Notes under the pieces: generated by a model
The model's database searches: none
What the model was told of the DNA's origin: nothing
Seen by the model: only the letters and a program-made list of their open reading frames with translations
Position numbers and translations under genes: made by a program
Sequence record: MH791411.1
Origin: Escherichia phage Ecwhy_1
Length of the DNA stretch: 64,000 nt
Strand: one strand, 5' to 3'
Shown here: positions 10,723-33,408 of the stretch, in pieces
Layout of the letters: every line of letters begins with the position of its first letter
How positions within the stretch are numbered: the first letter of the stretch is position 1

Positions 10723-11175
10723 TTAGTTATATGAAGTGAATAGATCAATACTTTCATCATCTACACTGATTAATTTACCAGTTGAACTAACAAACACAAT
10801 ATTACCACCAGGGGTGAGTTGAACACGCTGGTTTACTGAATATTGATCACTAAGGTTATAATTAGCCCATTCAACTACATAACGCTGTTCAACACCATTA
10901 GTATCATAAAGATAAACGTGTGTAACATCACGCATTTTTAAACGGTCTAACAGTGTAGAGTTATCCATGAAATCCGATGGAGTATCACTACGCAATGCAA
11001 TACCGAACTCACCAATACCAGTACTAATAGTTAGACCGTTGGAAAAACGACTACAAAGAGTTTTCTCGTCAGCAATATGCATCCATAAAACATTCTTTAC
11101 ATCAATCTCAATGAACTCACAATTTTCAAAAACTAAACCTACTTTAGAAACCTTACCATTAAATTGCATCATCAA
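10723..11175 (-). CDS. hypothetical protein
   Basis: Six-frame ORF, 150 aa. Confidence 0.5.
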   Translation of the reverse strand: MMMQFNGKVSKVGLVFENCEFIEIDVKNVLWMHIADEKTLCSRFSNGLTISTGIGEFGIALRSDTPSDFMDNSTLLDRLKMRDVTHVYLYDTNGVEQRYVVEWANYNLSDQYSVNQRVQLTPGGNIVFVSSTGKLISVDDESIDLFTSYN

Positions 11176-11609
11176 CTCCTATTTTTTTTGTATTTTAAAA
11201 TAAAATCTCTTGCTGCTTTCATAAGTTTAAATGGAATAGCTAATTCTTTAACAGTACTATCCATGAAATGTTCTTCTTCTGTATCATAGAATGTTGACGT
11301 GTAGTGTTCACAATCATCAATTCTATCCCAGATACTTGGCGTGTCAGCAATAACAGTGATTTGTTTATCAGTTTTGGTATGTGCCGCATGTAACGTAAAT
11401 CCAATATCACCCGTTTCAACACGAATTACAAACGATTTATCAGATATATAGTTCAACCAGCAATCTTTACCGAAGTATACAGTACTGTGTTTCTTCTCAA
11501 ATGTATTACTGTTTTCAAGTACATCAATGACAATATCAACCGCATTGTCACTTAAAATTTTGACCATATCATCTTCCTCGTAGGGTTCTGGCAATTTCAA
11601 AGATACCAT
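11172..11609 (-). CDS. F-Q/M-x-S motif family protein (variant EEEHFMDSTV)
   Basis: Six-frame ORF, 145 aa; C-terminal motif shared with the paralog family described in findings. Confidence 0.55.
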   Translation of the reverse strand: MVSLKLPEPYEEDDMVKILSDNAVDIVIDVLENSNTFEKKHSTVYFGKDCWLNYISDKSFVIRVETGDIGFTLHAAHTKTDKQITVIADTPSIWDRIDDCEHYTSTFYDTEEEHFMDSTVKELAIPFKLMKAARDFILKYKKNRS

Positions 11610-11639
11610 TTATGTTGTCAATTGTCAACATTTAAATGT

Positions 11640-12056
11640 TTATCCTTTATTTTGTTGTACGTTTTTATGTAGTACACCACAAATATAAAATAATTTACTT
11701 AGATTAGAATAACTTATGTTAGTTAGATCGTATACGAAATTTAGTTGCATATACATATCTTCAGTTAAATCATACAACGATTCATCCACATCAATTACAA
11801 TTTTCTTTGTAGTGTCAATCTCTACTTTATTAGGCCATACATCAATAACATAATCATCACCATGTTTTTCAGATATGGAAATGAAAACATTATCGCTTTG
11901 TTCTAAAAACTCCATGTATCCGTTAAGAAATGATCCAGTTATTATCTCATATTCACCAGAATGATACGTTGTCCTGGACTCAAATGCATTAAAAAATATA
12001 AAACGATATGTTTGGTTGATATACTCATCCATTAAACTAATAACTTCTTTATTCAT
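11640..12056 (-). CDS. hypothetical protein (start moved to internal Met MNKEVIS)
   Basis: Track ORF 11640..12116; an upstream terminator hairpin lies inside the annotated N-terminus and a GGGGA RBS precedes the ATG at 12056. Confidence 0.45.
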   Translation of the reverse strand: MNKEVISLMDEYINQTYRFIFFNAFESRTTYHSGEYEIITGSFLNGYMEFLEQSDNVFISISEKHGDDYVIDVWPNKVEIDTTKKIVIDVDESLYDLTEDMYMQLNFVYDLTNISYSNLSKLFYICGVLHKNVQQNKG

Positions 12057-12077
12057 TACATTAATCCCCACAAGAAA

Positions 12078-12105
12078 AAAGGCCGATTCATAATGAATCA
12101 GCCTT
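12078..12105 (-). terminator. intrinsic terminator (probable)
   Basis: Minus-strand stem AAGGCUGAUUCA / UGAAUCGGCCUU followed by a U-run. Confidence 0.45.
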
Positions 12106-12295
12106 AAGTATAACACAGTAGAAGTAAAAATGTCAACTTCTAAAATACAGTATCAAAGAGGAATAAAAAGATACTGTTAGAGGGTAACGAATATAATGAA
12201 CCATGAGGGTGATATCATTATACTTTAAAAGAGTGATAGCTTCTAGACAAAAGGAGGAATTCAGTACCGACTAGAAGCTATCCGGTTAAACGATT

Positions 12296-12580
12296 TCAGT
12301 ACTGAATGTTTAGTTTAGGATGAGTATGTCCATCTTCGATTTGCTTTAGAATCGAGTCGCGGATCTCTACTGCACCCTGATAACTGTATTTATCGTTCGG
12401 AACTACCCATGTATATTCACCATCAGTGGTTGTAAAATCAATACATGGATTGTCTCTGTATTCAGATGCAATGATTGAAATAACATGCAATGAATTCAAT
12501 GAATGATTTGTATAAGGATAATTGTTATTGTCTCGGAACGTGAATGTTTTTAGTTCATCAGGTGCAACAATAAATTCCAT
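12296..12580 (-). CDS. hypothetical protein
   Basis: Six-frame ORF, 94 aa. Confidence 0.5.
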   Translation of the reverse strand: MEFIVAPDELKTFTFRDNNNYPYTNHSLNSLHVISIIASEYRDNPCIDFTTTDGEYTWVVPNDKYSYQGAVEIRDSILKQIEDGHTHPKLNIQY

Positions 12581-12771
12581 TATTCATCCTCGTACTTCTT
12601 GAATGGTGGAACATCTCCATTGAAGTCTTTGCACATCTTAGTTGCACGAACTTCTGTATTGTTGTGGTAATTTTTCTTAAATTCATAAGAAACATAATTA
12701 CGAATACCAGGTGTATGAATAATAGCAAGAACCAATGTACGACCAAATAAGCATAACAAATTCAAAAACAT
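12580..12771 (-). CDS. hypothetical small protein
   Basis: Six-frame ORF, 63 aa. Confidence 0.35.
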   Translation of the reverse strand: MFLNLLCLFGRTLVLAIIHTPGIRNYVSYEFKKNYHNNTEVRATKMCKDFNGDVPPFKKYEDE

Positions 12772-12784
12772 ATTAAGCTCCGAG

Positions 12785-13144
12785 TTATGGATTAATCAAA
12801 CGACACATACCAACTATAACATTTATCTCTTCTAATGTCAAGTCACCAATGTCATTTATCATTGAGTACTGGAATAATGACTCTTCTGTGTACTCAAAAT
12901 CACGTACTGCTATAAAAATTGGCTCCTTAGAAACACCTAATGTTATCTTAGCCATTGTACTATATAAATCAAATCGATACAAAAGATTAGGAGAAGTATA
13001 TACTATGTATAAATTATTAGATTCTGATGGATGTACTAGGGTGAATCCATCATAACATAATATTTTTATGTTAGGATCATCAAAATTACCAGTATTAAGA
13101 TTCTTACGAACATCTTGCATTATACGAGTTATTAAACTAGTCAT
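12785..13144 (-). CDS. F-Q-x-S motif family protein (EESLFQYSMI)
   Basis: Six-frame ORF, 119 aa; clear paralog of the adjacent 13137..13553 gene. Confidence 0.55.
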   Translation of the reverse strand: MTSLITRIMQDVRKNLNTGNFDDPNIKILCYDGFTLVHPSESNNLYIVYTSPNLLYRFDLYSTMAKITLGVSKEPIFIAVRDFEYTEESLFQYSMINDIGDLTLEEINVIVGMCRLINP

Positions 13145-13553
13145 TAAACGGATTTAGAACCTCTTCTGGAATTAATCTTTGAACTTTAAGGATAGCACTA
13201 ATGTCCTCAAATGTCAATCCATTTAGATCGTTTACGAGACAGTACTGAAAGAATTTTTCTTCAGTATCAATATCGTCAAAATCCAATTCAATTCTAGTGT
13301 CATAATAATTACCATTTACATTAGCAATTCTGATTTTAACTCGTTCAAAATACACATCAAATGAATAAAAATGATCATTGATTTCATAACCAAGAAAAAT
13401 ATTAAAACATTTACTCAAATCAGTGGTTTCGTTCAAATCGCCATCATAGCAAAAAACTCTAACTTCACCAATATCTTCTAATTGTACATCATGTAGTGAC
13501 CATGCGTTGTTTTTTAATACGTAGTTCACCATTTTAACAATGTTGTATTTCAT
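13137..13553 (-). CDS. F-Q-x-S motif family protein (EEKFFQYCLV)
   Basis: Six-frame ORF, 138 aa; C-terminal block aligns with 12785..13144. Confidence 0.55.
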   Translation of the reverse strand: MKYNIVKMVNYVLKNNAWSLHDVQLEDIGEVRVFCYDGDLNETTDLSKCFNIFLGYEINDHFYSFDVYFERVKIRIANVNGNYYDTRIELDFDDIDTEEKFFQYCLVNDLNGLTFEDISAILKVQRLIPEEVLNPFND

Positions 13554-13570
13554 AGTGTACCTTTATTTTG

Positions 13571-13643
<73 letters not shown>

Positions 13644-13646
13644 TGA

Positions 13647-13729
<83 letters not shown>

Positions 13730-13780
13730 AGAAGTAAGATAACCAACAAGTCTCCATACTCTTTCGCATTGAGGGGAGGC

Positions 13781-13841
<61 letters not shown>

Positions 13842-13901
13842 GCCAAGTGTCGGCATAGGTGCAGCACTACAAAGTACTTCAAGCTGTTTAGCAGTTTCTT
13901 C

Positions 13902-13983
<82 letters not shown>

Positions 13984-13985
13984 TA

Positions 13986-14111
<126 letters not shown>

Positions 14112-14130
14112 GCATACTCGAAGTACCTCT

Positions 14131-14168
<38 letters not shown>

Positions 14169-14169
14169 A

Positions 14170-14222
<53 letters not shown>

Positions 14223-14267
14223 ATAGGCACACACGGAACTGCTTTATAAGCTACTGAATCGGGAATC

Positions 14268-14798
<531 letters not shown>

Positions 14799-14807
14799 AT
14801 TTGTTTC

Positions 14808-14993
14808 CTATGAAATGAATGTAGCGTTAATTCCCATTATAAATGAAAATATACCAAACAATATCAACCCGATTGGTACAAAGATCATAGATCTATTTCC
14901 ATGTTTCGATAAAAATCGTTCAACTGTAATTAAACGTATTGATATCGGAACCATTATAATAATATACAATATTGAAAGAATTAAAAGTTGCAT
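14808..14993 (-). CDS. hypothetical small membrane protein
   Basis: Six-frame ORF, 61 aa, two hydrophobic segments. Confidence 0.4.
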   Translation of the reverse strand: MQLLILSILYIIIMVPISIRLITVERFLSKHGNRSMIFVPIGLILFGIFSFIMGINATFIS

Positions 14994-15006
14994 TTTAATT
15001 TCCTAT

Positions 15007-15826
<820 letters not shown>

Positions 15827-16189
15827 ATCACCAACTTTAATTAAAAAAAATGGATGGTGACGCTTTTAAACGCCGCTGTTAATTCAGCTTTATAACCACC
15901 CGTTTTAACTTGCCTTTCGGCTACCTTGACGTGGGGCGTACAGGCTACTAAAAGCAACTACTGTAAACATATTTCCACGCCTTACCCTTTTAAATAAAAG
16001 TCCATCCGGTTTTCCAGTTTGGTGAAGGACTGTCACCTCTAGTTTAAACCTGCTAGTCAAGTAATAATTGCCTATCGTCCAATTATCAAACCCGTCTAGG
16101 TTAACATTCACCACTTCCTAGAGTACCAGAGATCTTGTTCTGGATTGCATCGACGTAACTTACACCATATACGTCTGATTGTGGAATTC

Positions 16190-16214
16190 ATTATATCAGT
16201 ACTGAACTATTTAG

Positions 16215-16218
<4 letters not shown>
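16190..16218 (-). promoter_or_regulatory. consensus sigma-70-type promoter TTGACT-N17-TATAAT
   Basis: Exact -35 and -10 hexamers with a 17-nt spacer on the minus strand; followed by about 340 nt without a convincing ORF, then the tRNA cluster. Confidence 0.6.
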
Positions 16219-16640
<422 letters not shown>

Positions 16641-16648
16641 CTTTTTAT

Positions 16649-16809
<161 letters not shown>

Positions 16810-16813
<4 letters not shown>

Positions 16814-16970
16814 ATTCGTACCAGTAGTTCAATTAAGTACATTTCATATGCTGGATCGTTGATAAGTTTATCATACAGATGTGGCTCTGAAATGAATTCC
16901 CAATGATACTTTAGCCATTTACCGATACCCGAATATCTAAAATTAATGTCATTCATCCATTCTTCATGTG

Positions 16971-16974
<4 letters not shown>
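16810..16974 (-). CDS. MTHEEW-family small protein (54 aa), copy B
   Basis: Hand translation: MTHEEWMNDINFRYSGIGKWLKYHWEFISEPHLYDKLINDPAYEMYLIELLVRI; ATGA stop/start overlap with copy C. Confidence 0.5.
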
Positions 16975-17240
<266 letters not shown>

Positions 17241-17243
17241 TTT

Positions 17244-17359
<116 letters not shown>

Positions 17360-17376
17360 ATAGTCTGTTCCAATAT

Positions 17377-17667
17377 TTATGATTCGGTTTCGGGATTAAA
17401 TTTTATAAATTCATCTTTATGTTCATCTTCAAACGCAATATCTTCTACATCTTCAGGCCAGATTGTGGTGTCCCCTTGGTAGAAGCGATAGTTATCGAAT
17501 TCTGCACTACGTGTTCTTCCCTGTTCCCAACCAATAGTACAGTCATGATATACATCACCACTACGTGTGCGAATGCTTATTGAGTCTTGTGTTTCATAAA
17601 GAACGTCAATGCGTGTGTTACGATTTGTATTGAATTTTTCAAAATGCATAGTAATCCCCAACAACAA
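17377..17667 (-). CDS. hypothetical protein
   Basis: Six-frame ORF, 96 aa. Confidence 0.45.
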   Translation of the reverse strand: MLLGITMHFEKFNTNRNTRIDVLYETQDSISIRTRSGDVYHDCTIGWEQGRTRSAEFDNYRFYQGDTTIWPEDVEDIAFEDEHKDEFIKFNPETES

Positions 17668-17670
17668 TTG

Positions 17671-17889
17671 TTATTCTTGTGGTTTAGTTACACCAACACC
17701 AATAATACTTTTAATATCAATATGGATATTAGCAAGTTCATTACTGTCAAACGGGTTAGTTTCAGTTACAACAACAGTGGTGTCATTAACTAAAACTACT
17801 GAACCTTTTACACGGTATCCCTGAAGGAGTACTTGTACATTGTCACCAGCGTTTAATGAGTTAATAACTTCTAATAGAGTAGATTCCAT
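17671..17889 (-). CDS. hypothetical protein
   Basis: Six-frame ORF, 72 aa. Confidence 0.45.
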   Translation of the reverse strand: MESTLLEVINSLNAGDNVQVLLQGYRVKGSVVLVNDTTVVVTETNPFDSNELANIHIDIKSIIGVGVTKPQE

Positions 17890-17899
17890 TTTATTTTCC

Positions 17900-18097
17900 T
17901 TACGGTTTACTATTTTTACGTTGTTCTGATTCGGGTACAGTTTTCATTTCACCAATACATAGTTCCATGATGAGTACACCTTTGTCATTATAACGTACTA
18001 CATCTTCAATGTCAAAATGTCTCGCACTATGAACAACTTCAATACATGCATCATCGGGATATGATTCCAATAATGCTACAAGTTCTGCTTTAGTCAC
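17900..18097 (-). CDS. hypothetical protein
   Basis: Six-frame ORF, 65 aa; GTG start with GAGGA RBS; promoter upstream. Confidence 0.45.
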   Translation of the reverse strand: MTKAELVALLESYPDDACIEVVHSARHFDIEDVVRYNDKGVLIMELCIGEMKTVPESEQRKNSKP

Positions 18098-18110
18098 TTT
18101 GGATTCCTCG

Positions 18111-18459
<349 letters not shown>

Positions 18460-18469
18460 AATATATCTT

Positions 18470-18640
18470 CTATTCCCTAAATGCAAGCTCATATATGAAC
18501 CATCGATTTCCATCCTCATCTAGTACATATAAATCGAACTGATGTTTGTCTCGTAAAATATCGTAATGACCATCACGAAATCCATTCCCAAACAGATCAT
18601 ATCGTTCTTTCATAATAGACATCCATTCTTCATGTGTCAT
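18470..18640 (-). CDS. MTHEEW-family small protein (56 aa)
   Basis: Hand translation: MTHEEWMSIMKERYDLFGNGFRDGHYDILRDKHQFDLYVLDEDGNRWFIYELAFRE; ATGA overlap with the upstream gene. Confidence 0.5.
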   Translation of the reverse strand: MTHEEWMSIMKERYDLFGNGFRDGHYDILRDKHQFDLYVLDEDGNRWFIYELAFRE

Positions 18641-19140
18641 TTACGTTGCATCCAATGTGAACCAGTCCAGACTTTTTTCTTTTCACGTTCTATCTGTCGT
18701 TGTTTTAATTCTTCATCCCACAGAATATTGTCGTTTAAGAAATAGTTATATAGTTCTTTTAACTTCAAATTATCTGAAAATGCGGGAAAGTACTTATTAT
18801 CACATACCAAACTCTCTTGAAAATGTACATCTTCATCTGTGATGTATTGATATGTGAAAATTCTATTCGGGTTTGGATAGATACCATTTGTTTCAGAGAA
18901 ACATTTTCTAAGTAGTCTTTTACCAAAATCACAGATAATAGTATCTTTACGAATAAAATTCCAGCGAGTAACCATTTTAATTGTTAGAGTTTGATAATTT
19001 TGATCTAAGCTTATTTGATGTTCACCATCTTTGTGCTTATAGTGATAAGTACCTTGTTTTCGAACTGTTCGTTCAAATTCATTAACATTAATTTTACTTA
19101 AAATCTCAGTAATACTTTCCGGTACATGCGTAATGAGCAT
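18637..19140 (-). CDS. F-Q-x-S motif family protein (DEDVHFQESLV)
   Basis: Six-frame ORF, 167 aa. Confidence 0.5.
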   Translation of the reverse strand: MLITHVPESITEILSKINVNEFERTVRKQGTYHYKHKDGEHQISLDQNYQTLTIKMVTRWNFIRKDTIICDFGKRLLRKCFSETNGIYPNPNRIFTYQYITDEDVHFQESLVCDNKYFPAFSDNLKLKELYNYFLNDNILWDEELKQRQIEREKKKVWTGSHWMQRK

Positions 19141-19185
19141 TATTGTTCTCCTGTTTAAAACAAAAGAATAGCATATATATCAGTA

Positions 19186-19368
19186 CTAGTCAATTTTTTT
19201 GACTCTAACCGCAAGCTCATAGATGAACCAGTGATTACTATCCTCATCAAGTACAAATGATTTGAAAAGTTGTTTATCTTTTAACACATCATAATGACCT
19301 TGGCGTATACCAAAACCAAAAGGATTATGTTTAAATTTTAGTTCATCTAACCATTCTTTATGTGTCAT
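19186..19368 (-). CDS. MTHEEW-family small protein (MTHKEW variant, 60 aa)
   Basis: Six-frame ORF; aligns with the 18470..18640 product (GHYD.L.DK..F...VLDED.N.WFIYELA). Confidence 0.5.
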   Translation of the reverse strand: MTHKEWLDELKFKHNPFGFGIRQGHYDVLKDKQLFKSFVLDEDSNHWFIYELAVRVKKID

Positions 19369-19550
19369 CTTATTTTGTCCATGACTGCTATACTAAAATA
19401 TGTACCAAAATCATCACAATTGATGATGTTGTTATAGTACTCGATTGGGTTACGCAATGATATATACAATTCAAGCTTAAAATAGTATATATCTGCTGCA
19501 TTTATATTATAGTGTAGATTAAACCACTCATCAAATGTCTTAGGCTGCAT
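19365..19550 (-). CDS. hypothetical protein
   Basis: Six-frame ORF, 61 aa. Confidence 0.4.
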   Translation of the reverse strand: MQPKTFDEWFNLHYNINAADIYYFKLELYISLRNPIEYYNNIINCDDFGTYFSIAVMDKIR

Positions 19551-19944
19551 TATATTTATCTTTATAAAAATCCATGATTTTAGTCAACAGTACTGCAATC
19601 GTATAATCTAAATCAGGATAAAGTAAATTGTACTGAAATTCTTCCTCTACACTATAGTTTGTGGTGCAGTACTGATAGTCTTTATAACCAATGGAAAAAT
19701 GGTTAGGATACAATGTACAACGAAAACGATATGCTTCATCTGTCATATAATCATTGTATTCAACACAGAAGTATAGTGATTTTGCATTTAATTCAATAAG
19801 CTCAACGAAACCATCAGGTAATGAATGGTTATAAATTACTGAATCTTCATTAAACCATTCATAGTATTTTTCCAAAAAATCACTAATGGATACATCCAGA
19901 CTTTGTATAGGTGGAGTTATGATAATTTGAACTTCTTTATTCAT
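19540..19944 (-). CDS. F-Q-x-S motif family protein (SVEEEFQYNLL)
   Basis: Six-frame ORF, 134 aa. Confidence 0.5.
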   Translation of the reverse strand: MNKEVQIIITPPIQSLDVSISDFLEKYYEWFNEDSVIYNHSLPDGFVELIELNAKSLYFCVEYNDYMTDEAYRFRCTLYPNHFSIGYKDYQYCTTNYSVEEEFQYNLLYPDLDYTIAVLLTKIMDFYKDKYNAA

Positions 19945-20447
19945 TTCGACCCCTTACTATATTTCACGTATGGGCTATCATACAGATCATAACTTTTTTG
20001 TGCACGTTCTTTTCGGCGTTCATACATGATTCTATCATAATCTTTGGCTTTCTGATTTGCTTCATTATACAATTTTAAAATAAGCAAAAAAGCATCAAGG
20101 TCGGGATAGTTTGCTGGATTGATAGTACTCAGCATAAATCGTTCTTCTTCAGTTCTAGCTAAGTCAAACTCGTACTTAATAGTTTTATATCCACTCCATT
20201 TATATGTATGTGTTACTTTATTAGTAAGTACATTGTATCCAACGAAGTCAGTACTACCATCAAGTACGCGAGTAATCATAATAGATGTACCAATGACAAT
20301 CTGCACAGAACTCATTTCTGAAGTTTTAAAGTAATATATATTACCACGTCGCAGATTAACTTCTCGATCTCCAATGCGAACATGCTTAATAACTTCAGTT
20401 AATGGTTCTGGGACACCACGAATAGGCATGTTAGTATTCCTCAACAA
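19941..20447 (-). CDS. F-Q/M-x-S motif family protein (variant EEERFMLSTI)
   Basis: Six-frame ORF, 168 aa. Confidence 0.45.
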   Translation of the reverse strand: MLRNTNMPIRGVPEPLTEVIKHVRIGDREVNLRRGNIYYFKTSEMSSVQIVIGTSIMITRVLDGSTDFVGYNVLTNKVTHTYKWSGYKTIKYEFDLARTEEERFMLSTINPANYPDLDAFLLILKLYNEANQKAKDYDRIMYERRKERAQKSYDLYDSPYVKYSKGSK

Positions 20448-21000: not shown

Positions 21001-21047
21001 ATGTTCTCCTTAGTAAGTCATAGTATTATATCAGAGTTTCATTGCAC

Positions 21048-21440
21048 TTACCAGCATGTTTTCATAACTTCTGTGATGTAAATCATTTTATCTTTTAGTT
21101 CATAAGGGATGCAAATTTCACCTGGGCTTAACGTTGTGTTCTTTTGAAACTCATCCTCTTCGGAATCAGCCAGGTAAAATGGGTGCGTCACAAAGTTATC
21201 ATCAACTGGACGATTATGTGGTTTCATTAATGCATCATGATTGACAAAATAATAAGCATCAATATCAGGACGGAAATACAAACAATCAACCTTAATGCAC
21301 GGGTGTAACCATAAGGACAAAGAATATGTTATTTGGTTACCAATTTGTCTTGGACCAGATGCAATTGTATTGATGTTATTTTTATCTTGCACCATTTCAT
21401 AAATGAAATCTATCATTTTACGTAGTTCAGATTCAGTCAT
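21048..21440 (-). CDS. F-Q-x-S motif family protein (EEDEFQKNTT)
   Basis: Six-frame ORF, 130 aa. Confidence 0.5.
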   Translation of the reverse strand: MTESELRKMIDFIYEMVQDKNNINTIASGPRQIGNQITYSLSLWLHPCIKVDCLYFRPDIDAYYFVNHDALMKPHNRPVDDNFVTHPFYLADSEEDEFQKNTTLSPGEICIPYELKDKMIYITEVMKTCW

Positions 21441-22751: not shown

Positions 22752-22778
22752 TTTTAATACCCTTTTATTTCTTTTTTA

Positions 22779-22799: not shown

Positions 22800-22869
22800 G
22801 AATGGTTTGCATTTTTACATCTGCCGATAATATACATTATATCATGCTTTTCAGCGTTGTCCCAAAAAA

Positions 22870-25319: not shown

Positions 25320-25837
25320 TTGATTAATATAGGAGTATTATACATACTCCATTTTCATGTGTCAAGCTTTATAATACGGAAGACTTTTCACTAAAGATTC
25401 TGACGTATTATTTTTTACCCATGTACTACCGTTGTCTTTGGATACATATCCAATACCATTAACAAACTTACGCATAATACCAGTAAAAATATTAGTATAC
25501 ACCATTACTCAGTATCCTTTGGTTTAGAATGTAAACCATACTTTTCATCATAACGATCATAGGTAGTGCCATTAGTACTAGCTTTGATGCTTTCGGTGCG
25601 ATTGATTGGTTCGATTTTGACACCACGATAACCAATCTCTTCTTTAAATTGTTCCCATGATTCACGTAGACTCATTTTAGTCCCCTTTTTGTTATTTCAT
25701 ACACTCACGTAGGTCAATCTTTTCAACTGAACCACCGAGTACTAGATAGTGAAAATTAGAATCTTTGTTTGCCATATTCAAAAGATCTGCTTTCTGTTGA
25801 AGCGTAAAGCGTGAAGTACTGTTACGTACTGGCATAG

Positions 25838-26281
25838 TTACTCCTTAAAGTAGATATCACGAATTTGCTTAATCATCTCTAACTCTTGAAGTCCTATCAT
25901 ACCAAAGTTTTCTTGTACTGTCAACTGTTGGAAGTACATTTCCTCTAAATTATCATAAGGAATATCCACTAATGATAAAGGAACTCGTTCTTCACTGAAT
26001 ACCAGATCTTCAACTAAATGTTTTATAATCATAATAGAAAATAAATCTTTTTGGATATGAAATTTGTAAAATGTTTGATTAGTAGTGAACATTGTGTTTG
26101 ATGGATGGAAACCCATTTCAACAAATACTGTATCTTTATCATTATGTGTGCAATATGTACATCTTGAATTCGCAAGAACTTTAGATTTTGGGTAATAAAA
26201 ATCACCCAGCAACTTCTGTCGTTTCCAGTCCTCATATACAACTGGATGCTTAACCTTCTTCAATCGGTGCAGTACTGTCAT
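25838..26281 (-). CDS. F-Q-x-S motif family protein (LEEMYFQQLTV)
   Basis: Six-frame ORF, 147 aa. Confidence 0.5.
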   Translation of the reverse strand: MTVLHRLKKVKHPVVYEDWKRQKLLGDFYYPKSKVLANSRCTYCTHNDKDTVFVEMGFHPSNTMFTTNQTFYKFHIQKDLFSIMIIKHLVEDLVFSEERVPLSLVDIPYDNLEEMYFQQLTVQENFGMIGLQELEMIKQIRDIYFKE

Positions 26282-26661
26282 AGTTTTTTCCAGTCCAATG
26301 AATCGAAATCGATTTGTTCAGGGTTATCAACAGCGACAACTCGTGCATTATGAAGAGTTTCAAAGTAGCCGTTCCACGGTGTTCGTAATGGAACTGTCAC
26401 ATCACCAACTTTAACCAAGAATGAATATGCTGGTGATATTGGGTCAAACCACTCTTTTTGTTTAGCATTTTCGACGATGGTTTCGTGTTCTTTTGTATAG
26501 CAATTATCTTGCTTCATATAAAACACCCAATGCTCTTTTAGGCACTGTAAAGCAGCAACTGCTTCCTCTTTAGAAGACCATTGAATATCAATTGTATTAA
26601 GAACGTCATAACAATTTTCAGTATCACCTGTAGTGTAATGTACTTCAATGCAGTATTTCAT
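26278..26661 (-). CDS. hypothetical protein
   Basis: Six-frame ORF, 127 aa. Confidence 0.5.
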   Translation of the reverse strand: MKYCIEVHYTTGDTENCYDVLNTIDIQWSSKEEAVAALQCLKEHWVFYMKQDNCYTKEHETIVENAKQKEWFDPISPAYSFLVKVGDVTVPLRTPWNGYFETLHNARVVAVDNPEQIDFDSLDWKKL

Positions 26662-27116
26662 TATTCAACACCTTTTAGTAATTTACAAATTTCAATCATA
26701 TGATAATAACATGTATTCCAAAATTGCCCAGTAGTACTACCAACATCATGCACAGTACTTTGTTGGAAAACATATTCATCATTGAACAACTTTTTAATGT
26801 CATCAATGTAAAATTCTGGTTTTGAATCATTATTGTATTCAATACTCGTTTCACCATCTGGATCAAGTGAAATTGATGATATGTCGTGAATTCCTATCGG
26901 ATTTGTTGGATAAATTCTCAACGTAAGAGGATAGAAGTCTGGATCGGTTTCATATGTATATTCGATTATGTAATTACCATCTCCAGTGATTGAGTTATAT
27001 TTAAATGTAGGTTCAAATACATTATGGACATTATAACCTAGTTTATTCATCTCGTTAAGATGTAATAATATTTTATGTAAAGTCCCTAAGACATGAATCA
27101 AATTATCAATTTTCAT
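26661..27116 (-). CDS. F-Q-x-S motif family protein (DEYVFQQSTV)
   Basis: Six-frame ORF, 151 aa. Confidence 0.5.
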   Translation of the reverse strand: MKIDNLIHVLGTLHKILLHLNEMNKLGYNVHNVFEPTFKYNSITGDGNYIIEYTYETDPDFYPLTLRIYPTNPIGIHDISSISLDPDGETSIEYNNDSKPEFYIDDIKKLFNDEYVFQQSTVHDVGSTTGQFWNTCYYHMIEICKLLKGVE

Positions 27117-27655
27117 TTACGATCCTTTGAAAAGTTCAGTTTAAAAGATTTACCAAATTCCATTGTAGCTTTACCCAGATTGTTAATATTTTCTTTCAAC
27201 ATTTCTTGCATCTTTCTTACACTTTCATTCCATGCTTCTTCTTCTTTGCGGAGGATTGGTCGCAATCGTTCCTGAATATCGTTGAAACGTGCATTGACTT
27301 CAACCAATGATTCATATGTGAAATCTTTCATATCGATGATAGTACTACGTTGAAAGAATTCTTCTTCGGATAAATTACTCAAAATGATTTTATCACTACC
27401 AATAGATAATGTCAATTCATCATCTTGATTTTTTTTAATTACAATACGTACAGGTGATTTTATAGTAATGTGAACATCATGATTATTAAAAGTTTCAGTT
27501 TTGTTTGACGTTCTGAATTGTAGTCTTCCGGTTAGTGCGTGTACTGGCATTGGGTTCTTTTTACCAGTAATAACATCTTCCCACGAATCAAGGATATTAT
27601 TAATAATTTTAACATAAGGAACTGTCATATATGCACCTATGAAAAATCCACGCAT
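27113..27655 (-). CDS. F-Q-x-S motif family protein (EEEFFQRSTI) with extended C-terminus
   Basis: Six-frame ORF, 180 aa. Confidence 0.5.
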   Translation of the reverse strand: MRGFFIGAYMTVPYVKIINNILDSWEDVITGKKNPMPVHALTGRLQFRTSNKTETFNNHDVHITIKSPVRIVIKKNQDDELTLSIGSDKIILSNLSEEEFFQRSTIIDMKDFTYESLVEVNARFNDIQERLRPILRKEEEAWNESVRKMQEMLKENINNLGKATMEFGKSFKLNFSKDRK

Positions 27656-27670
27656 AGCGTGGATCTGTAA

Positions 27671-28201
27671 TTAATCGAGTATAGTAACTTCAATCAAACG
27701 AATTTCGATGAATTCGTTTTCAGTTTCCCATGATGAACCTAATTTCTTATTAAGTTCAGTTTTAACATCACTTTTAAATTTTCCCATAGTATTAGGAATA
27801 ATTTGTTTGGTTAGTTTGTCATAACCACAATAAAACATAGGTTTCTCCCTTCGAGATATTAGCTCAACAAAATCCTTTGGATATGCAGGTATATTATGCA
27901 TCACTTCATGAATGCACTCAGTACTTGAATCTTGTACTTTGTACATTACATTAAGTTTACCTTTGAAAGTGCGAATCATATCAACAATAATACCTTTACC
28001 GGATTTAAGTAAAGTTCCATTCTTTGTATGAGAACAATAGAATACCTCATCACCAATATTAGGATAGTACAAATTAAATTCTAATTCTTCCTTTGATGAC
28101 TGACGTTGAAATTTCATTACACGTTCAGTATAGGTGGGGTAGTTCTTCATGTTCAAAAGAATATCTCTCTTAGTAAGTGTGATATAACTGGCATAGTCCA
28201 T
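27671..28201 (-). CDS. hypothetical protein
   Basis: Six-frame ORF, 176 aa; overlaps the methyltransferase gene by about 50 nt. Confidence 0.45.
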   Translation of the reverse strand: MDYASYITLTKRDILLNMKNYPTYTERVMKFQRQSSKEELEFNLYYPNIGDEVFYCSHTKNGTLLKSGKGIIVDMIRTFKGKLNVMYKVQDSSTECIHEVMHNIPAYPKDFVELISRREKPMFYCGYDKLTKQIIPNTMGKFKSDVKTELNKKLGSSWETENEFIEIRLIEVTILD

Positions 28202-29013
28202 CCATTCCCAAGCATTTTGTATGCTTGTGTCTTACTAGACACTTTAAAGAAATCTACAGGAATACCCTGTAATTTACAACATTCTACTACACTTAAGTGT
28301 CTATAGTCAATATTTCTTTTACCATTCTCCAATAGATATTGACGATTAATCGTTGGGTCACGAAACACCAACTGTCGTCTTGATTTATTAAAGTACTGGT
28401 TACAATCACCACCCTTAAAATAGTTAGCATCTATACAGTACGAAGCGGTTCTGTCAGTGTACCAACCATCTTCAATGATATCTTGAAGTTTAGGGGCATT
28501 TGATAATGCAGGTGGTATAAAAAGCTTATCAGTACTGCACCAGTAGTATCTCTGCCTGAAGTGAGGCGTATAATGCTGGGAATTTATCAGTACTGGTGTG
28601 ATTCCTAAAATACTATTAATGTATTCTTTGAAATCTTCCTTCATTTTAACATTCTCGAACAGAAATTGCAAGTTTGGATTTACACTTTTGATGTGCTCAA
28701 AAATATCAACCATAACCAAAAATAACTGTCCACGTATATCATTCAAGCCACCTTGCTTACCAGCAACAGACCAGGCTTGACATGGGAATCCTCCCATGAG
28801 TAAATCTATCTTATCCCACTCAATATCCCATTCTTTCCACTTAGTCACATCACCTAACTGGATAATATCAGGAAAATTCTCGGAAGATTCAGCAATTGCG
28901 TACTTGTCAATTTCAGATGAGTAATATTTTTCAACTGGAATACCTGCATCAGCCAATGCCATATATCCAACGCTCATTCCATTAAAAAGTGACAGTACTC
29001 TGATAGGTTTCAT
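28153..29013 (-). CDS. DNA (cytosine-5)-methyltransferase
   Basis: Motif IV GGFPCQAWSVAG, motif VI FLFENV, motif VIII FRQRYYW, motif X MLGNGWTMPV, motif I-like LFNGMSVG; no restriction endonuclease partner seen. Confidence 0.8.
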   Translation of the reverse strand: MKPIRVLSLFNGMSVGYMALADAGIPVEKYYSSEIDKYAIAESSENFPDIIQLGDVTKWKEWDIEWDKIDLLMGGFPCQAWSVAGKQGGLNDIRGQLFLVMVDIFEHIKSVNPNLQFLFENVKMKEDFKEYINSILGITPVLINSQHYTPHFRQRYYWCSTDKLFIPPALSNAPKLQDIIEDGWYTDRTASYCIDANYFKGGDCNQYFNKSRRQLVFRDPTINRQYLLENGKRNIDYRHLSVVECCKLQGIPVDFFKVSSKTQAYKMLGNGWTMPVISHLLREIFF

Positions 29014-29065
29014 ATAAAATCCTTTTTATATTGTTAAGGTACTATAATACATTATAGCATCTTAT

Positions 29066-29356
29066 TTAGAAATCTTCCAGACTTTTTTCATCGCACCATC
29101 GAGAAGTACAGATGATCGCAGATGCAAGAATTGAAGCACTGGCTCGACCACCACCAAGTAAGTACTGGCTAATGACACCAATCATATTGAAGACTTTATC
29201 ATACTCAGCAAGGAGTTCGAAATCCTTCTTCCAACATTGATATTCTTCTTCAGTAACATTAAACTCATCACCAAGTTCATTTAAAATCTTTTTAAGTACT
29301 GCACGATGTTCACTCATCTGATTCCCCATATCGTTCGTCGTAAAAATCATCATCAC
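29066..29356 (-). CDS. hypothetical protein
   Basis: Six-frame ORF, 96 aa. Confidence 0.45.
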   Translation of the reverse strand: MMMIFTTNDMGNQMSEHRAVLKKILNELGDEFNVTEEEYQCWKKDFELLAEYDKVFNMIGVISQYLLGGGRASASILASAIICTSRWCDEKSLEDF

Positions 29357-29395
29357 GGTCCAACGGTTCTTTTGGTTTTTCTGCCATATATTTCC

Positions 29396-29656
29396 TCACA
29401 TGGTAAATGTATTATCACCATCCATATCTTCATCTGTAGCTTCAGCTAATGTCTTAATAGTCAGTAATTCACGCTTCACGTACAGCATGAAGACCTTTTC
29501 ATAATTACCGAACATCATCTCAGGTGACATGTAATTCTCCGTTACAATGACGATTGGACGGCCCTGTGACAGCATACGAAACATAGTACGGTATTTGTCA
29601 AAGGTGCGAAATTCATCCATGTTCATCATGTGGCGTTTACGAACTACTTTAGTCAT
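29396..29656 (-). CDS. hypothetical protein
   Basis: Six-frame ORF, 86 aa. Confidence 0.45.
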   Translation of the reverse strand: MTKVVRKRHMMNMDEFRTFDKYRTMFRMLSQGRPIVIVTENYMSPEMMFGNYEKVFMLYVKRELLTIKTLAEATDEDMDGDNTFTM

Positions 29657-29670
29657 TTTGATACCTTTAG

Positions 29671-30126
29671 TTAATTGAACTCGATTTCTGGATAATGATT
29701 ATAGAACATCTCACGTACTGCGTCAAGCTGTTCTTTAAATTTCTCAATGTCATCAAGAGTTAGTACAGTGTTACTAACTGTACTCAACTGAAAAAGTGCC
29801 TCTTCAGTACTGTTTTCTGATAAATCAAATGTACATGATGAATCATCTGTTATAATATTATCACATATTTCAAATGTGTCAATATGAACATCATTGAGTA
29901 GATCACCACTATAATCATTATATATGAACACAAAAATGTATGATGGTTTTTTTATCTCAGTTTCTGACTCATAGGCTACCAAATCATATGTTACGTAACA
30001 TTTAAAGTCAGGTGAATCGTATTCCATAGATACAATTCCTATATCACGATATTGATTCGCTTCACTGATTAAATCCGGTATAGGTGTAATACTAAGTAAA
30101 TGGAAAAACTGTCCTGGATTTAGCAT
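29671..30126 (-). CDS. F-Q-x-S motif family protein (STEEALFQLSTV)
   Basis: Six-frame ORF, 151 aa; first of the tandem array. Confidence 0.55.
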   Translation of the reverse strand: MLNPGQFFHLLSITPIPDLISEANQYRDIGIVSMEYDSPDFKCYVTYDLVAYESETEIKKPSYIFVFIYNDYSGDLLNDVHIDTFEICDNIITDDSSCTFDLSENSTEEALFQLSTVSNTVLTLDDIEKFKEQLDAVREMFYNHYPEIEFN

Positions 30127-30575
30127 TTGATTACCTTCGGGTTTTGCTCTGTGATATCAAACATAGATAGAACGAAATCATTTAGCTTTTCAACACAATT
30201 GATTATAGTGCTTAAATCAGAATAACTAACTGTTAAATTTTTAACAAGAGATTCCTGAAAGTATCCTTCTTCAGTTGAGCAATAACTCACATTTGAGATA
30301 GTCTCATAATGTATATCTTTGCTTGTTTTACATGTTATAATTTCTATTATATCCGATGTTGTGTTATATAATAATATAAATGTTGTTGTTCGTGAATTCT
30401 TATTGTAAAATGCGAGTTCAGTGCTGTCATATGTTTTCTCAATAAGAACATTGTACTCTTCCGAAAACGATGTGGAAATTCTAATTATCTCTTCTGGATC
30501 AGGAACATAAGAGCCATCAAATTTACAAGACAATGCAATTTCAAAATGATTTTTTATTTCATCAATTTTCATCAT
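30120..30575 (-). CDS. F-Q-x-S motif family protein (STEEGYFQESLV)
   Basis: Six-frame ORF, 151 aa; homologous to 29671..30126 over its length (FILLYN / FVFIYN). Confidence 0.55.
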   Translation of the reverse strand: MMKIDEIKNHFEIALSCKFDGSYVPDPEEIIRISTSFSEEYNVLIEKTYDSTELAFYNKNSRTTTFILLYNTTSDIIEIITCKTSKDIHYETISNVSYCSTEEGYFQESLVKNLTVSYSDLSTIINCVEKLNDFVLSMFDITEQNPKVIKC

Positions 30576-30967
30576 AGCTCACCATTTAATTTGCTATTTA
30601 CATATTCTAATGCTTTTTTAACAATGCCAATTTCGGTAACTCCTATTACATTTTTCTCGATTAACGACAATTGAAATAGTTCATCTTCCTCAATATCAAT
30701 ACTATGGGTTCTTGACCAATAAACGTTGAAGTCATATGCATATCGTATTGTATTTTCTTTAATATCAAGTACCAATATAACCATACCATTGTGTAGGTAT
30801 GTCAGTGTTTTTCCGTATATATTAAAAATTAACCTATCTGGTGTACCCAATGGAAGATGAATTATATTTTGTGTAGTTCCAACAATAACAAAATCATTAT
30901 CTATATTTTTATTCAAGTCACCTAGAATGTCATATATAGTAGTCATGTTAATCTTGACCCTCAGCAT
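30572..30967 (-). CDS. F-Q-x-S motif family protein (EEDELFQLSLI)
   Basis: Six-frame ORF, 131 aa. Confidence 0.55.
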   Translation of the reverse strand: MLRVKINMTTIYDILGDLNKNIDNDFVIVGTTQNIIHLPLGTPDRLIFNIYGKTLTYLHNGMVILVLDIKENTIRYAYDFNVYWSRTHSIDIEEDELFQLSLIEKNVIGVTEIGIVKKALEYVNSKLNGEL

Positions 30968-31367
30968 TTCTGATGATTCGCATTACTTCTCTGGATACGT
31001 TGTATACTTTTTTATAGTACTCAAATGTAACTGAACCAAAATCATTAACAGTACTATCCATGAAGAACGATTCTTCGGTGCAATACACACCTGTAATTGA
31101 AACATGCTCATGATGGAATTTAGCATCTTTCCAGTAACGGAATTCGAAAATAAATTGCCCGTCATGACCAACCCTACAACACTCAGCACGGTCACTGTCT
31201 ACGCAGCTAATCACAATATCCCTTTCGGAGTCATACCAGATATTTCCAATATTTGTTTCAATAACTGCATAATCAATTTTTGTTGAATTGGGAATTACAC
31301 CTTTTTTTACCAGTACTAGACTGGTATTATCAATATCAAGTAAACTTACCATATCAACTCCCCACAA
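30948..31367 (-). CDS. F-Q/M-x-S motif family protein (variant TEESFFMDSTV)
   Basis: Six-frame ORF, 139 aa. Confidence 0.5.
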   Translation of the reverse strand: MWGVDMVSLLDIDNTSLVLVKKGVIPNSTKIDYAVIETNIGNIWYDSERDIVISCVDSDRAECCRVGHDGQFIFEFRYWKDAKFHHEHVSITGVYCTEESFFMDSTVNDFGSVTFEYYKKVYNVSREVMRIIRNAEGQD

Positions 31368-31764
31368 TTACTGTGTTTTTGATTTCTAACAATTCACTAT
31401 ACATCTTCTTCAATTGTACAATATCTTCATATAAAATACCACCCATATCATCAATCAAAGAACGTTGGAATAGTGATTCATCTGACTGTATCGTGTCCAA
31501 ATCAGAAATTTTCAATACTGTAACTGGGTTTAGGGTGTTTACAATAAGTTTGTTTGTGTATGGGATGTATGTGATCTTGATATTCATTTCCGAATCAAGG
31601 GCATACAACCTCAAAACAGACAAATCACCACAAAGTTGGATTTTTGGTTCATCAAACTCATCAGACCACCACATAGTACTAGTCATATAATTGACGTGTT
31701 GGTTCAAATGTGATATATCCAAATCGAAATAATATTTTAGTTCATTGTGTAAATCTAAACTCAT
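31354..31764 (-). CDS. F-Q-x-S motif family protein (SDESLFQRSLI)
   Basis: Six-frame ORF, 136 aa. Confidence 0.55.
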   Translation of the reverse strand: MSLDLHNELKYYFDLDISHLNQHVNYMTSTMWWSDEFDEPKIQLCGDLSVLRLYALDSEMNIKITYIPYTNKLIVNTLNPVTVLKISDLDTIQSDESLFQRSLIDDMGGILYEDIVQLKKMYSELLEIKNTVIVGS

Positions 31765-31819
31765 AAATTTATCCTCTATGCATCATTATCTTACAGTGTA
31801 GGATAAACCCACGATAATG

Positions 31820-32215
31820 TCAAGATGTGAATTGCTCATACCAGTGATACAGTTCTTTTAATTCTTCAGTACTGAATAGAACATCTTCAATCGTTGTTTG
31901 TTGGAAGTGGTAATCTTCATTTAAGTACATTGAAATATTTTTATATACTTTTCGATTACATTTCCCAAGAAATGATGTTCTTTTGGATGTATATTCAATA
32001 AATGTTAACTTATCTAATTCTACATCCAATGACAATTTCATACAGTATTCAGTATCATCTACGTACATAAGTTTATTTGAATAACAATCAACTGTGATAT
32101 ATTCTTTATGTGAGAATTGGTATATACCATTAAATTTTTTACCATTTGTACTTCGGAATTTTTCAAGGTAATAAGAGAGTGGTTTAGATATTGTACTACC
32201 AATAGTATTATTCAT
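31820..32215 (-). CDS. F-Q-x-S motif family protein (NEDYHFQQTTI)
   Basis: Six-frame ORF, 131 aa. Confidence 0.5.
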   Translation of the reverse strand: MNNTIGSTISKPLSYYLEKFRSTNGKKFNGIYQFSHKEYITVDCYSNKLMYVDDTEYCMKLSLDVELDKLTFIEYTSKRTSFLGKCNRKVYKNISMYLNEDYHFQQTTIEDVLFSTEELKELYHWYEQFTS

Positions 32216-32236
32216 AGAACCTCAAAATTTAGACAA

Positions 32237-32260
32237 GAAAAATGCCCCGAAGGTCGGGGC
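32237..32260 (-). terminator. intrinsic terminator
   Basis: Minus-strand stem GCCCCGA / UCGGGGC with a 4-nt loop followed by a U-rich tract. Confidence 0.55.
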
Positions 32261-32372
32261 AGTACGAAAAAGATTTTGTACAAAAAAGGGGAATAATACA
32301 ATAAAATAATAACGCATCATTATTATGTAAGGGAGGAAAGTAACATGATAATGTTAACCATTACTGGTATAA

Positions 32373-32924
32373 TTATTTATCATTTAATTCTTTTAATTGA
32401 GCTTGTATATCACCAGAAAGTTTACGGATTTTCTTGAAACAGTACACGCTATCATCAAGTTCAAGTTCTAGGCCGTGTGTGATTGCATAAAGCATTTCAG
32501 CAAGTACTAGATCCTGACGCATCCAGTTACCATTCTTATAGGTTGTCATTACACAATAAGGACAGTGGCTGTTTCCGGTTTGTTTACCCAGGAACACAGA
32601 TTGGATTGTATCATGCTTGAAACCCACAAAAGATTGGTTGATCTTGTTGATTTCAGCTACTACGTCCATTTGTGCACCAGTGTTGATTGCAAACACTTGG
32701 TCACCGTTCTCGGTTTTGTTAATGTTTAGTTCAATATCACTACCAAGTTTACGAACAGCCAATGTATAAAGTAGGATTTCATACATATCATAATTGGTTG
32801 TTTCGCCATTTGGTGCAGTTACATCGAGACTAACACCATGCATTTTAACTTCAGTACTGAATCCATCTTTATCTGCTAGAAAATCAGTGATTTGTTCAGT
32901 TAGGATTTTAATTTGGTCAATCAT
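32373..32924 (-). CDS. hypothetical protein
   Basis: Six-frame ORF, 183 aa. Confidence 0.5.
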   Translation of the reverse strand: MIDQIKILTEQITDFLADKDGFSTEVKMHGVSLDVTAPNGETTNYDMYEILLYTLAVRKLGSDIELNINKTENGDQVFAINTGAQMDVVAEINKINQSFVGFKHDTIQSVFLGKQTGNSHCPYCVMTTYKNGNWMRQDLVLAEMLYAITHGLELELDDSVYCFKKIRKLSGDIQAQLKELNDK

Positions 32925-32945
32925 TATTCATATCCTTATGTTGGA

Positions 32946-32968
32946 AAAGCCCCCATTACGGAGGCTTT
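32946..32968 (-). terminator. intrinsic terminator (imperfect stem)
   Basis: Hairpin AAAGCCUCC...GGGGGCUUU with flanking U-run, after the gene ending at 32980. Confidence 0.4.
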
Positions 32969-32979
32969 TGTTAATCTAA

Positions 32980-33408
32980 TTATAGGGAAGCTTCGTATTC
33001 AGCTACAATGTCAACCATCTCATTGACAAAGTTGATGTGGTCATGAGTTACAGTACGGAAATCATAAACCAGTGATTGTTGGAAGAATACGTCTTCAGCC
33101 AGATTACCTTCAAAGTTCAGGTCGATGTTTTCTTCATCGTTGGTTGGAGCAACTTTGATATTTAGTTGATTTTCATCAACGACCAATTTCACTACACAAC
33201 CCAATGCAATCGCCAGTACATAGGCAGGTTTCTTAGCTGCTTCAGAACGGAATGGAGCACGTAGTGCACAAATGGTGCTGCTAATCTCATCATTCAGTTC
33301 TTTATATTTAACGTTAATCATCAGTTCTTCAATTTTGACGCTCTCGATTACACGACCAGTTTCAGCAGCGAAGAAAGAGTGGTTACGGATAGTTTGTTCG
33401 ATATTCAT
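32980..33408 (-). CDS. F-Q-x-S motif family protein (EDVFFQQSLV)
   Basis: Six-frame ORF, 142 aa. Confidence 0.5.
   Translation of the reverse strand: MNIEQTIRNHSFFAAETGRVIESVKIEELMINVKYKELNDEISSTICALRAPFRSEAAKKPAYVLAIALGCVVKLVVDENQLNIKVAPTNDEENIDLNFEGNLAEDVFFQQSLVYDFRTVTHDHINFVNEMVDIVAEYEASL

Follow-up and report, generated by a model that had tools for sequence, protein, structure and literature searches.

The 64,000-nucleotide stretch of Escherichia phage Ecwhy_1 analyzed here (sequence record MH791411.1; hereafter the window) encodes, on its minus strand between 11 and 33.5 kb, 20 members of an extensive family of small proteins that share one short signature, centered on a Phe-Gln pair, toward the C-terminus. 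Phage TH47 (MT446416.1), a complete unannotated genome with 97.7% identity to the window over the 5 kb tested, has 67 members. Structure prediction indicates that each member is a single compact domain, with the signature forming a helix integral to the fold. The reading we prefer, tentatively and at slightly less than an even chance, is by analogy with other viral families: the proteins may constitute a diversified scaffold of early binders for host takeover or anti-defence, with the motif as keystone of the fold.

A sequence-only reading of the window had listed 19 open reading frames (ORFs) with the motif, and all 19 are recovered by an ORF check, on the minus strand and with unchanged coordinates. 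The motif itself is genuine. The regular expression F[QM]x[SLCNT][TLM][VILT] matches 18 ORFs, every one of them on that list, and has no match outside 11-33.5 kb among ORFs of at least 50 residues in the whole window; the remaining listed ORF, 15455-15826, carries the relaxed form DEFQKRTV. Residue shuffles of the 237 ORFs yield a mean of 1.7 matches (maximum 7) versus the 18 observed, and 0.013 versus 17 when the preceding acidic pair is included. In a MAFFT alignment the motif falls into a single block of columns, so the failure to align that might have undone the family did not occur. Conservation is in the protein and not in the DNA. Serine is encoded by both AGT and TCN, and the wobble positions of TTT/TTC and CAA/CAG vary, which rules out a DNA-level element within the genes, such as a promoter.

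The count of 19 stands as far as it goes, all being members, but it missed 11640-12116, and the family is far larger than the window shows. A hidden Markov model (HMM) built from the 19 others matches this twentieth member at E 1.6e-4, and a genome-wide HMM, whose training set contains the TH47 orthologs of the window members, that of 11640-12116 included, matches it at E 4.8e-11; at the aligned motif columns it has M-Q. The genome-wide model separates the 20 ORFs of the window from the rest, with E 9e-6 for the weakest member and no more than 5e-8 for most, the next ORF scoring E 0.16. Other details of the earlier description needed correction. The distance from the end of the motif to the C-terminus is 22-74 residues rather than 25-45, and the dense run at 29.7-33.4 kb comprises seven members in eight consecutive genes, not eight in nine. 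Neighbors were said to be alignable along their N-terminal bodies; this holds for a few pairs, such as 12785/13137, whose TH47 orthologs (of 12785-13144 and 13137-13553) are 35% identical over 99 residues, while most pairs are alike just around the motif. Many members overlap the adjoining gene by 4-20 nt, which suggests that they are organized in operons. Members are mostly acidic, with a median isoelectric point of 4.8 versus 5.7 for other ORFs; the exceptions are three basic members with long basic tails.

Across 130 members from several genomes, the sole strongly conserved block reads [ST]-E-E-x-hydrophobic-F-Q-x-S-[TL]-[VIL]-x-[DN]. The Phe is present in 127 members, the Gln in 124, the two Glu residues in 103 and 98, the Ser in 105, and Thr or Leu in 119. 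A weaker block, hydrophobic-[ST]-hydrophobic-E, follows downstream, and the body conserves an aromatic residue (Tyr or Phe in 109/113) and an Asp in the sheet; overall identity among members is about 11-16%. A first AlphaFold model, of 29671-30126 with 20 paralogs as the alignment, reached a predicted local distance difference test score (pLDDT) of 55 and was confident just in the C-terminal helices, where the motif forms helix 108-117. The model of 13137-13553, built with 143 sequences, has pLDDT 87.6 and a predicted template modeling (TM) score of 0.82. It shows a helix at 5-15, six strands within 19-91, a short helix at 92-95, and two further helices at 98-107 and 115-125, the first of which corresponds exactly to the motif, EEKFFQYCLV. 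On these models each member is predicted to be one compact, usually acidic alpha+beta domain, composed of an N-terminal helix, a six-stranded antiparallel meander sheet, and a helix-loop-helix, in which the motif is the first helix of the C-terminal pair. The suggestion that the motif is a separable processing or targeting signal is not sustained by them, as it is a helix inside the folded domain in two models of different members.

The predicted fold resembles that of p32/MAM33 weakly, and the resemblance serves as a lead only. The MAM33/p32/gC1qBP fold consists of an N-terminal helix, seven consecutive antiparallel strands, and two C-terminal helices, and p32 forms a doughnut-shaped homotrimer. 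Foldseek lists p32 first, with non-significant scores (E 0.14, TM about 0.3), and generic beta-meander proteins such as OspA and LolA score the same. Were the likeness real, the family might act as oligomeric acidic decoys of p32/MAM33 type: their helices would mediate homo- or hetero-oligomerization, and the resulting acidic rings would imitate nucleic acid or serve as chaperones for basic proteins. The model, however, has six strands against seven in p32, and three members are basic. Sequence relationship is likewise lacking: 10 members give no match to Pfam MAM33 at E<=1, and family profiles searched against all PDB sequences at E<=10 find no p32 chain and no relation to any other solved protein. 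We judge the decoy explanation unlikely, with a modest chance of being right.

Over positions 29,000-34,000 the window is 99.0-99.5% identical to Escherichia phages WPEC3, Turkey3, EC.P1, BF17, fEgEco12, and CMSTMSU, and 82-85% identical to 121Q, PBECO4-like phages, and ph0011. Every one of these relatives is an Asteriusvirus ("Rak2-like" jumbo phage), a myovirus with a genome of 347-386 kb, and family members are labeled "hypothetical protein" in all that are annotated. In TH47 an iterated HMM search converges at 67 ORFs, all on one strand, with F-[Q/M] at the aligned motif columns in 64 and M-Q or L-Q in the other three. Of the 67, 41 map to 40-81 kb, three to 117-142 kb, 20 (the cluster seen in the window) to 156.8-181.7 kb, and three to 336-351 kb. 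Set against the 551-670 annotated genes of related genomes, 67 members represent roughly 10-12% of gene content, an unusually large share of a tailed-phage genome for one family. The larger second cluster in TH47, at 40,213-81,425, packs 41 members into 41 kb, about 65-105 kb upstream of the start of the window in TH47 coordinates; it includes recent tandem sets 41-47% identical and motif variants such as EEYYFQQSTVYD and ELFQESLVFDK.

Outside Asteriusvirus, single-sequence tblastn searches gave no significant family matches across genera. Weak tblastn matches led to Salmonella phage Munch and Erwinia phage Hallingskeid, which have at least 10 and at least 15 HMM-matching ORFs, respectively, nearly all with a TEEExFQxSTVxD signature. 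In IMG/VR the degenerate DNA pattern for T-E-E-x-x-F-Q-x-S-T-V finds 20 stretches; 17 belong to genomes 345-366 kb in length, among them 121Q, GAP32, and RaK2. The pattern for E-E-E-x-F-Q-x-S-T-V finds 19, of which 16 are on genomes of this kind and three are without HMM support. A stricter pattern finds seven stretches in Joint Genome Institute (JGI) metagenomes, six from Rak2-like contigs. Among 100,044 bacterial and archaeal genomes the pattern gives 35 stretches, none of which passes the HMM; the chance level, a rough estimate from the information content of the pattern and the size of the collection, is also about 35. A recurrent match in Bacteroidetes, TTEEKEFQISTV, proved to be such a coincidence in an unrelated IcmF-type fused methylmalonyl-CoA mutase; at locus L062 (5194-8595) and about 12 other Bacteroidetes loci the peptide STTEEKEFQISTVQNLW recurs in this kind of mutase, a 1133-residue protein with a MeaB GTPase. 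In a Foldseek search of BFVD, the named matches at E<1e-3 are all Rak2-like phages, GAP32 being the best, several top matches are nameless, and RaK2 and CBB fall just above that threshold. Of the sources named for matches in 5.8 billion proteins, every one is an Escherichia or Salmonella phage or an E. coli record, and many of the contigs are about 350 kb long.

One candidate member lies beyond the Rak2-like clade. This outlier is a 108-residue ORF with LTEEMLFQFSTVEGD and a family-like layout (locus L017, 627-953), on a contig, IMGVR_UViG_2878899656_000007, that at 49 kb and 48% GC appears not to be Rak2-like; tblastn against isolated phages finds no match for it. By DNA-pattern scans, tblastn, and protein database and BFVD searches, which are less sensitive than an exhaustive profile search, the family is confined to the Rak2-like jumbo myoviruses of enterobacteria, namely Asteriusvirus, RaK2, GAP32, Munch, and Hallingskeid. 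The description of the family as a lineage-specific paralog expansion is thereby upheld, with 67 copies in TH47 and confinement to Rak2-like phages in three collection scans and in BFVD.

The family appears to be undescribed, as had been supposed. Sequence searches of Pfam, NCBIfam, PADLOC, and PDB are empty; in PADLOC, none of the 20 members matches any profile at E<=1, and thus no component of a known anti-phage defence system was recognized among them. In PHROGs, each of the 10 members scanned falls in its own group of unknown function, with weak cross-matches between groups. No description of it was found in the papers on RaK2, CBB, phAPEC6, Sharanji, PA5oct, and fEgEco12, in a 2021 comparative survey of 224 jumbo phages (PMC7824862), or in a 2026 genome paper on the closest relative.

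Members evolve under purifying selection. The ratio of nonsynonymous to synonymous substitution rates (dN/dS) against 121Q orthologs ranges from 0.11 to 0.66 and is below 1 in 10 of the 10 pairs tested, and most pairs show stronger constraint on the C-terminal module than on the body. The repertoire, at the same time, turns over. For 20 of the 67 TH47 members the nearest paralog lies within two genes, versus 6% expected, a trace of tandem duplication. Member 18637-19140 has no homolog in TH47 or in the examined stretch of fEgEco12; copies of a 124-nt direct repeat flank the cassette of about 730 bp that contains it, and fEgEco12 has a single copy of the repeat at the cassette junction. Conversely, the TH47 member at 157,208-157,612 is absent from Ecwhy_1. 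Presence or absence of members thus differs between genomes 97.7-99% identical over the 5 kb tested, and members are actively gained and lost between near-identical phages. Such differences in copy number, together with frequent tandem duplication, are what selfish or neutral duplicates without individual roles would produce. Against a functionless expansion of this sort stand the dN/dS values, the assignment of every one of the 10 paralogs scanned to a PHROG group of its own, the conservation of orthologs across the genus, and the maintenance of the motif across genera; we give the idea very little chance.

Nine perfect copies of the host sigma-70 promoter consensus, TTGACA-N16-18-TATAAT, occur in the window, all on the coding (minus) strand and none on the opposite strand, versus 0.16 expected on both strands. 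The authors of the CBB genome paper place the corresponding region among early genes on the same grounds (PMC5259590). From these promoters we infer that the family is expressed early in infection. The PA5oct transcriptome cannot be used for the family, because no member occurs in the 10-60 kb stretch of that genome examined, which holds most of its RNA-seq-defined early genes (gp34-gp105). As to the virion, none of 62 phAPEC6 virion proteins is encoded in the gene ranges that hold members (PMC7247149), in a check that maps by position between phAPEC6 and TH47. The phAPEC6 virion protein gp037c was checked as a candidate member and is not one. By this mapping the family proteins are non-virion.

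These results bear on the speculation that the motif is cut by a 3C or tobacco etch virus (TEV) type protease at an ExxYFQ-like site, or that it is a capsid-targeting signal. The TEV/3C site is ENLYFQ/(G/S), in a segment that is extended and accessible. The family motif has the same E...FQ spacing, and some members read EEEYFQ/x, in agreement with E-x-x-Y-x-Q. Neither the P3 nor the P1' position is conserved, however: the P3 column has Leu in 38, Tyr in 35, and Phe in 24 of 130 members, and P1' is Tyr, Leu, Gln, or other residues. The motif is helical and embedded in the fold in both models, and a scan covering the window found no chymotrypsin-like cysteine (3C-like) protease encoded there. 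Packaging is opposed by the phAPEC6 virion result, and both ideas by the C-terminal position of the signal in genes with early-type promoters. Cleavage or capsid targeting is, on this evidence, hardly credible. The ORF 38786-39475, considered as a protease on account of its annotation as "peptidase" in fEgEco12, matches in Pfam only an Rv2179c-like 3'-5' exoribonuclease (E 4.5e-9), and that annotation is probably wrong.

What the conserved residues do can be approached through the periodicity of the motif helix. In the 130-member alignment its variable columns are just i, i+4, and i+8, so about two-thirds of the helix surface is constrained, as expected for a helix packed between a sheet and other helices. 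In form, [ST]-E-E corresponds to an N-terminal capping box. Under the keystone reading, [ST]-E-E would cap the N-terminus of the motif helix, Phe, Gln, Ser, Thr/Leu, and Val would occupy the two-thirds of its surface that packs into the domain, and the Asp together with the downstream [ST]-x-E would start the last helix. By virtue of these putative roles the motif would be the keystone of the fold, kept while sheet and loops diverge beyond recognition. The scaffold would be made at the start of infection, and each paralog would have its own host target, among host-takeover or defence proteins, and would neutralize it, probably by stoichiometric binding.

Several points weigh against that reading. 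The single confident model was built on an alignment dominated by orthologs of the member modeled, and burial of the motif helix is deduced from periodicity alone. Polar residues (E, E, Q, S, T, D) predominate at the best-conserved positions, as is commoner in functional sites than in hydrophobic cores. Early timing is taken from a promoter consensus, and the proposed binder or anti-defence role comes from analogy with other viral multigene families.

Two explanations make more of the polar residues. The family could be an adaptor repertoire, in which the conserved helix docks all members on one hub, either a host machine (a protease, chaperone, or RNA polymerase) or a phage protein, and the bodies recruit cargoes in an F-box/PRANC-like manner. 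Largely polar invariant positions in proteins of such low overall identity would fit, as would a motif kept across genera whose bodies cannot be aligned and a constraint stronger on the C-terminal module than on the body. But the conserved positions span about two-thirds of the helix circumference and not one exposed face, and the helix lies within a high-confidence compact domain; we regard adaptors as unlikely, though with a real chance of proving correct. Their sharpest form, a Phe-Gln helix that plugs about 67 paralogs into one host or phage machine, such as a protease, a chaperone, or the transcription apparatus, while divergent sheets choose the host proteins, is doubtful and has a small chance. 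If true, it would be the first large "substrate-adaptor" repertoire described in bacteriophage and a prokaryotic-virus counterpart of F-box/PRANC. Docking on a common partner or p32-like oligomerization may still apply and would be the more novel outcome. The second explanation is a pocket for a small molecule or metal, lined by the conserved Tyr, Asp, Glu-Glu, Gln, and Ser-Thr, which might for instance sequester a signaling molecule. Conservation of polar residues, of the aromatic position, and of the Asp in the sheet would be in keeping with this, yet 67 paralogs per genome with unrelated bodies are hard to square with one ligand, and no known sponge or enzyme matches in fold or sequence. 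Such a pocket seems to us very improbable.

For the diversified binder scaffold, the family has the traits expected of host-takeover or counter-defence genes, being apparently early, non-structural, acidic, tandemly duplicating, and strain-variable. On the strength of that fit it would offer about 67 natural variants of one scaffold, a panel ready for screening against E. coli defence systems and host proteins. Rak2-like jumbo phages are often isolated as therapy candidates, yet annotation is lacking for more than 80% of their genes. Roughly one in ten of these unannotated genes can now be assigned to one family with one predicted fold and a searchable signature, and dozens of PHROG and "hypothetical protein" entries collapse into a single tractable problem.

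Table 1. Family members and associated features in the window, with positions counted from its first nucleotide.
Feature	Position	Strand	Remarks
Member	11172..11609	-	145 aa; motif DTEEEHFMDSTVKE; regular expression and HMM
Twentieth member	11640..12116	-	158 aa from GTG, 138 aa from ATG at 12056; degenerate motif TEDMYMQLNFVYD
Member	12785..13144	-	119 aa; motif YTEESLFQYSMIND; tandem duplicate of 13137-13553
Member	13137..13553	-	138 aa; motif DTEEKFFQYCLVND; confident AlphaFold model
Member	15455..15826	-	123 aa; relaxed motif ADEADEFQKRTVYE; HMM
Member	16215..16580	-	121 aa; motif KTEEEYFQTSTVQE; dN/dS vs 121Q 0.66 overall, 0.19 in C-terminal module
Member	18637..19140	-	167 aa; motif TDEDVHFQESLVCD; basic C-terminal tail; strain-variable
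124-nt direct repeat, left copy	18477..18600	.	brackets variable cassette with 18637-19140
124-nt direct repeat, right copy	19205..19328	.	73% identical to left copy
Member	19540..19944	-	134 aa; motif YSVEEEFQYNLLYP; dN/dS 0.11
Member	19941..20447	-	168 aa; motif RTEEERFMLSTINP; basic C-terminal tail
Member	21048..21440	-	130 aa; motif DSEEDEFQKNTTLS; regular expression and HMM
Member	25838..26281	-	147 aa; motif NLEEMYFQQLTVQE; regular expression and HMM
Member	26661..27116	-	151 aa; motif FNDEYVFQQSTVHD; regular expression and HMM
Member	27113..27655	-	180 aa; motif LSEEEFFQRSTIID; 74-residue charged-rich tail behind motif
Member	29671..30126	-	151 aa; motif STEEALFQLSTVSN; net charge -23; motif is helix 108-117 in low-confidence model
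Member	30120..30575	-	151 aa; motif STEEGYFQESLVKN; regular expression and HMM
Member	30572..30967	-	131 aa; motif IEEDELFQLSLIEK; regular expression and HMM
Member	30948..31367	-	139 aa; motif CTEESFFMDSTVND; regular expression and HMM
Member	31354..31764	-	136 aa; motif QSDESLFQRSLIDD; regular expression and HMM
Member	31820..32215	-	131 aa; motif LNEDYHFQQTTIED; regular expression and HMM
Member	32980..33408	-	142 aa; motif LAEDVFFQQSLVYD; regular expression and HMM
Perfect sigma-70 promoters, start of -35 hexamer	7411, 14042, 18015, 18159, 23505, 25365, 34509, 39553, 57751	-	

Several other features lie among or near the members. The sole non-member within the dense run, 32373-32924, has no Pfam match and is conserved in distant Rak2-like contigs (44% identity in L070). 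A 43-nt cassette occurs three times (15425-15467, 16185-16227, and 16606-16648), with TTGACT-N16/17-TAAAAT/TATAAT on the coding strand around the palindrome CAGTACTG; its copies flank family members and a tRNA-Ser gene, and these repeated, putatively early promoters are reminiscent of the gene-shuffling promoter-stem-loop cassettes of T4-type phages. Six tRNA genes are interspersed with members at 13570-17333, including two adjacent tRNA-Thr(TGT) genes and two for tRNA-Ser. The region 16791-17273 is a tandem array of a 161-nt unit, with two full copies and a third beginning at 17115, where fEgEco12 annotates three consecutive 165-nt genes; these very small ORFs seem to constitute a mini-family of their own. 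A stretch of 28-32 nt from the beginning of the unit reappears at 18612-18651, adjoining the variable cassette. The same strand block also encodes a Dcm-type C5 cytosine methyltransferase (28153-29013), whose ORF overlaps the upstream 27671-28201 by 49 nt, and a homolog of TelA (toxic anion resistance; 39557-40774).

Several known systems invite comparison. The T4-type internal proteins are likewise small phage proteins, hypervariable apart from one short conserved motif. Theirs, however, is a linear capsid-targeting motif at the N-terminus that the prohead protease cuts off, and they are packaged into the virion. The motif described here stops 22-74 residues short of the C-terminus and forms part of a predicted structural helix, and no member was recovered among the phAPEC6 virion proteins. 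SUKH/Imm immunity arrays of polymorphic toxin systems are likewise tandem, divergent paralogs encoding small alpha+beta proteins, which bind and neutralize diverse effectors. That mode of action is the one proposed, by analogy, for the present family, which has no Pfam SMI1_KNR4/SUKH profile match and no Syd/SMI1-like fold.

Large viruses are known to encode extensive paralog families. Multigene families (MGF) of large DNA viruses, such as MGF110/360/505 of African swine fever virus, US22/SUKH of herpesviruses, and the ankyrin-PRANC proteins of poxviruses, are thought to bind host factors. The present family has the generic marks of these, with many divergent paralogs, a shared signature, clustering, restriction to a clade, and variation between strains, and it resembles them in having tens of divergent tandem paralogs with a short signature, strain-variable and located in terminal or early accessory regions. 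It differs in that its host virus is a tailed phage, its fold is unrelated, and it takes up about 10-12% of all genes. Among jumbo phages, the counterpart is the zinc ribbon expansion of Bacillus phage G, with about 35 copies (PMC7824862), which is also a large paralog expansion of a small domain. Compared with it, the family described here has no Cys/His ligands, reaches a copy number about twofold higher, and represents an expansion shared by several genera instead of one phage.

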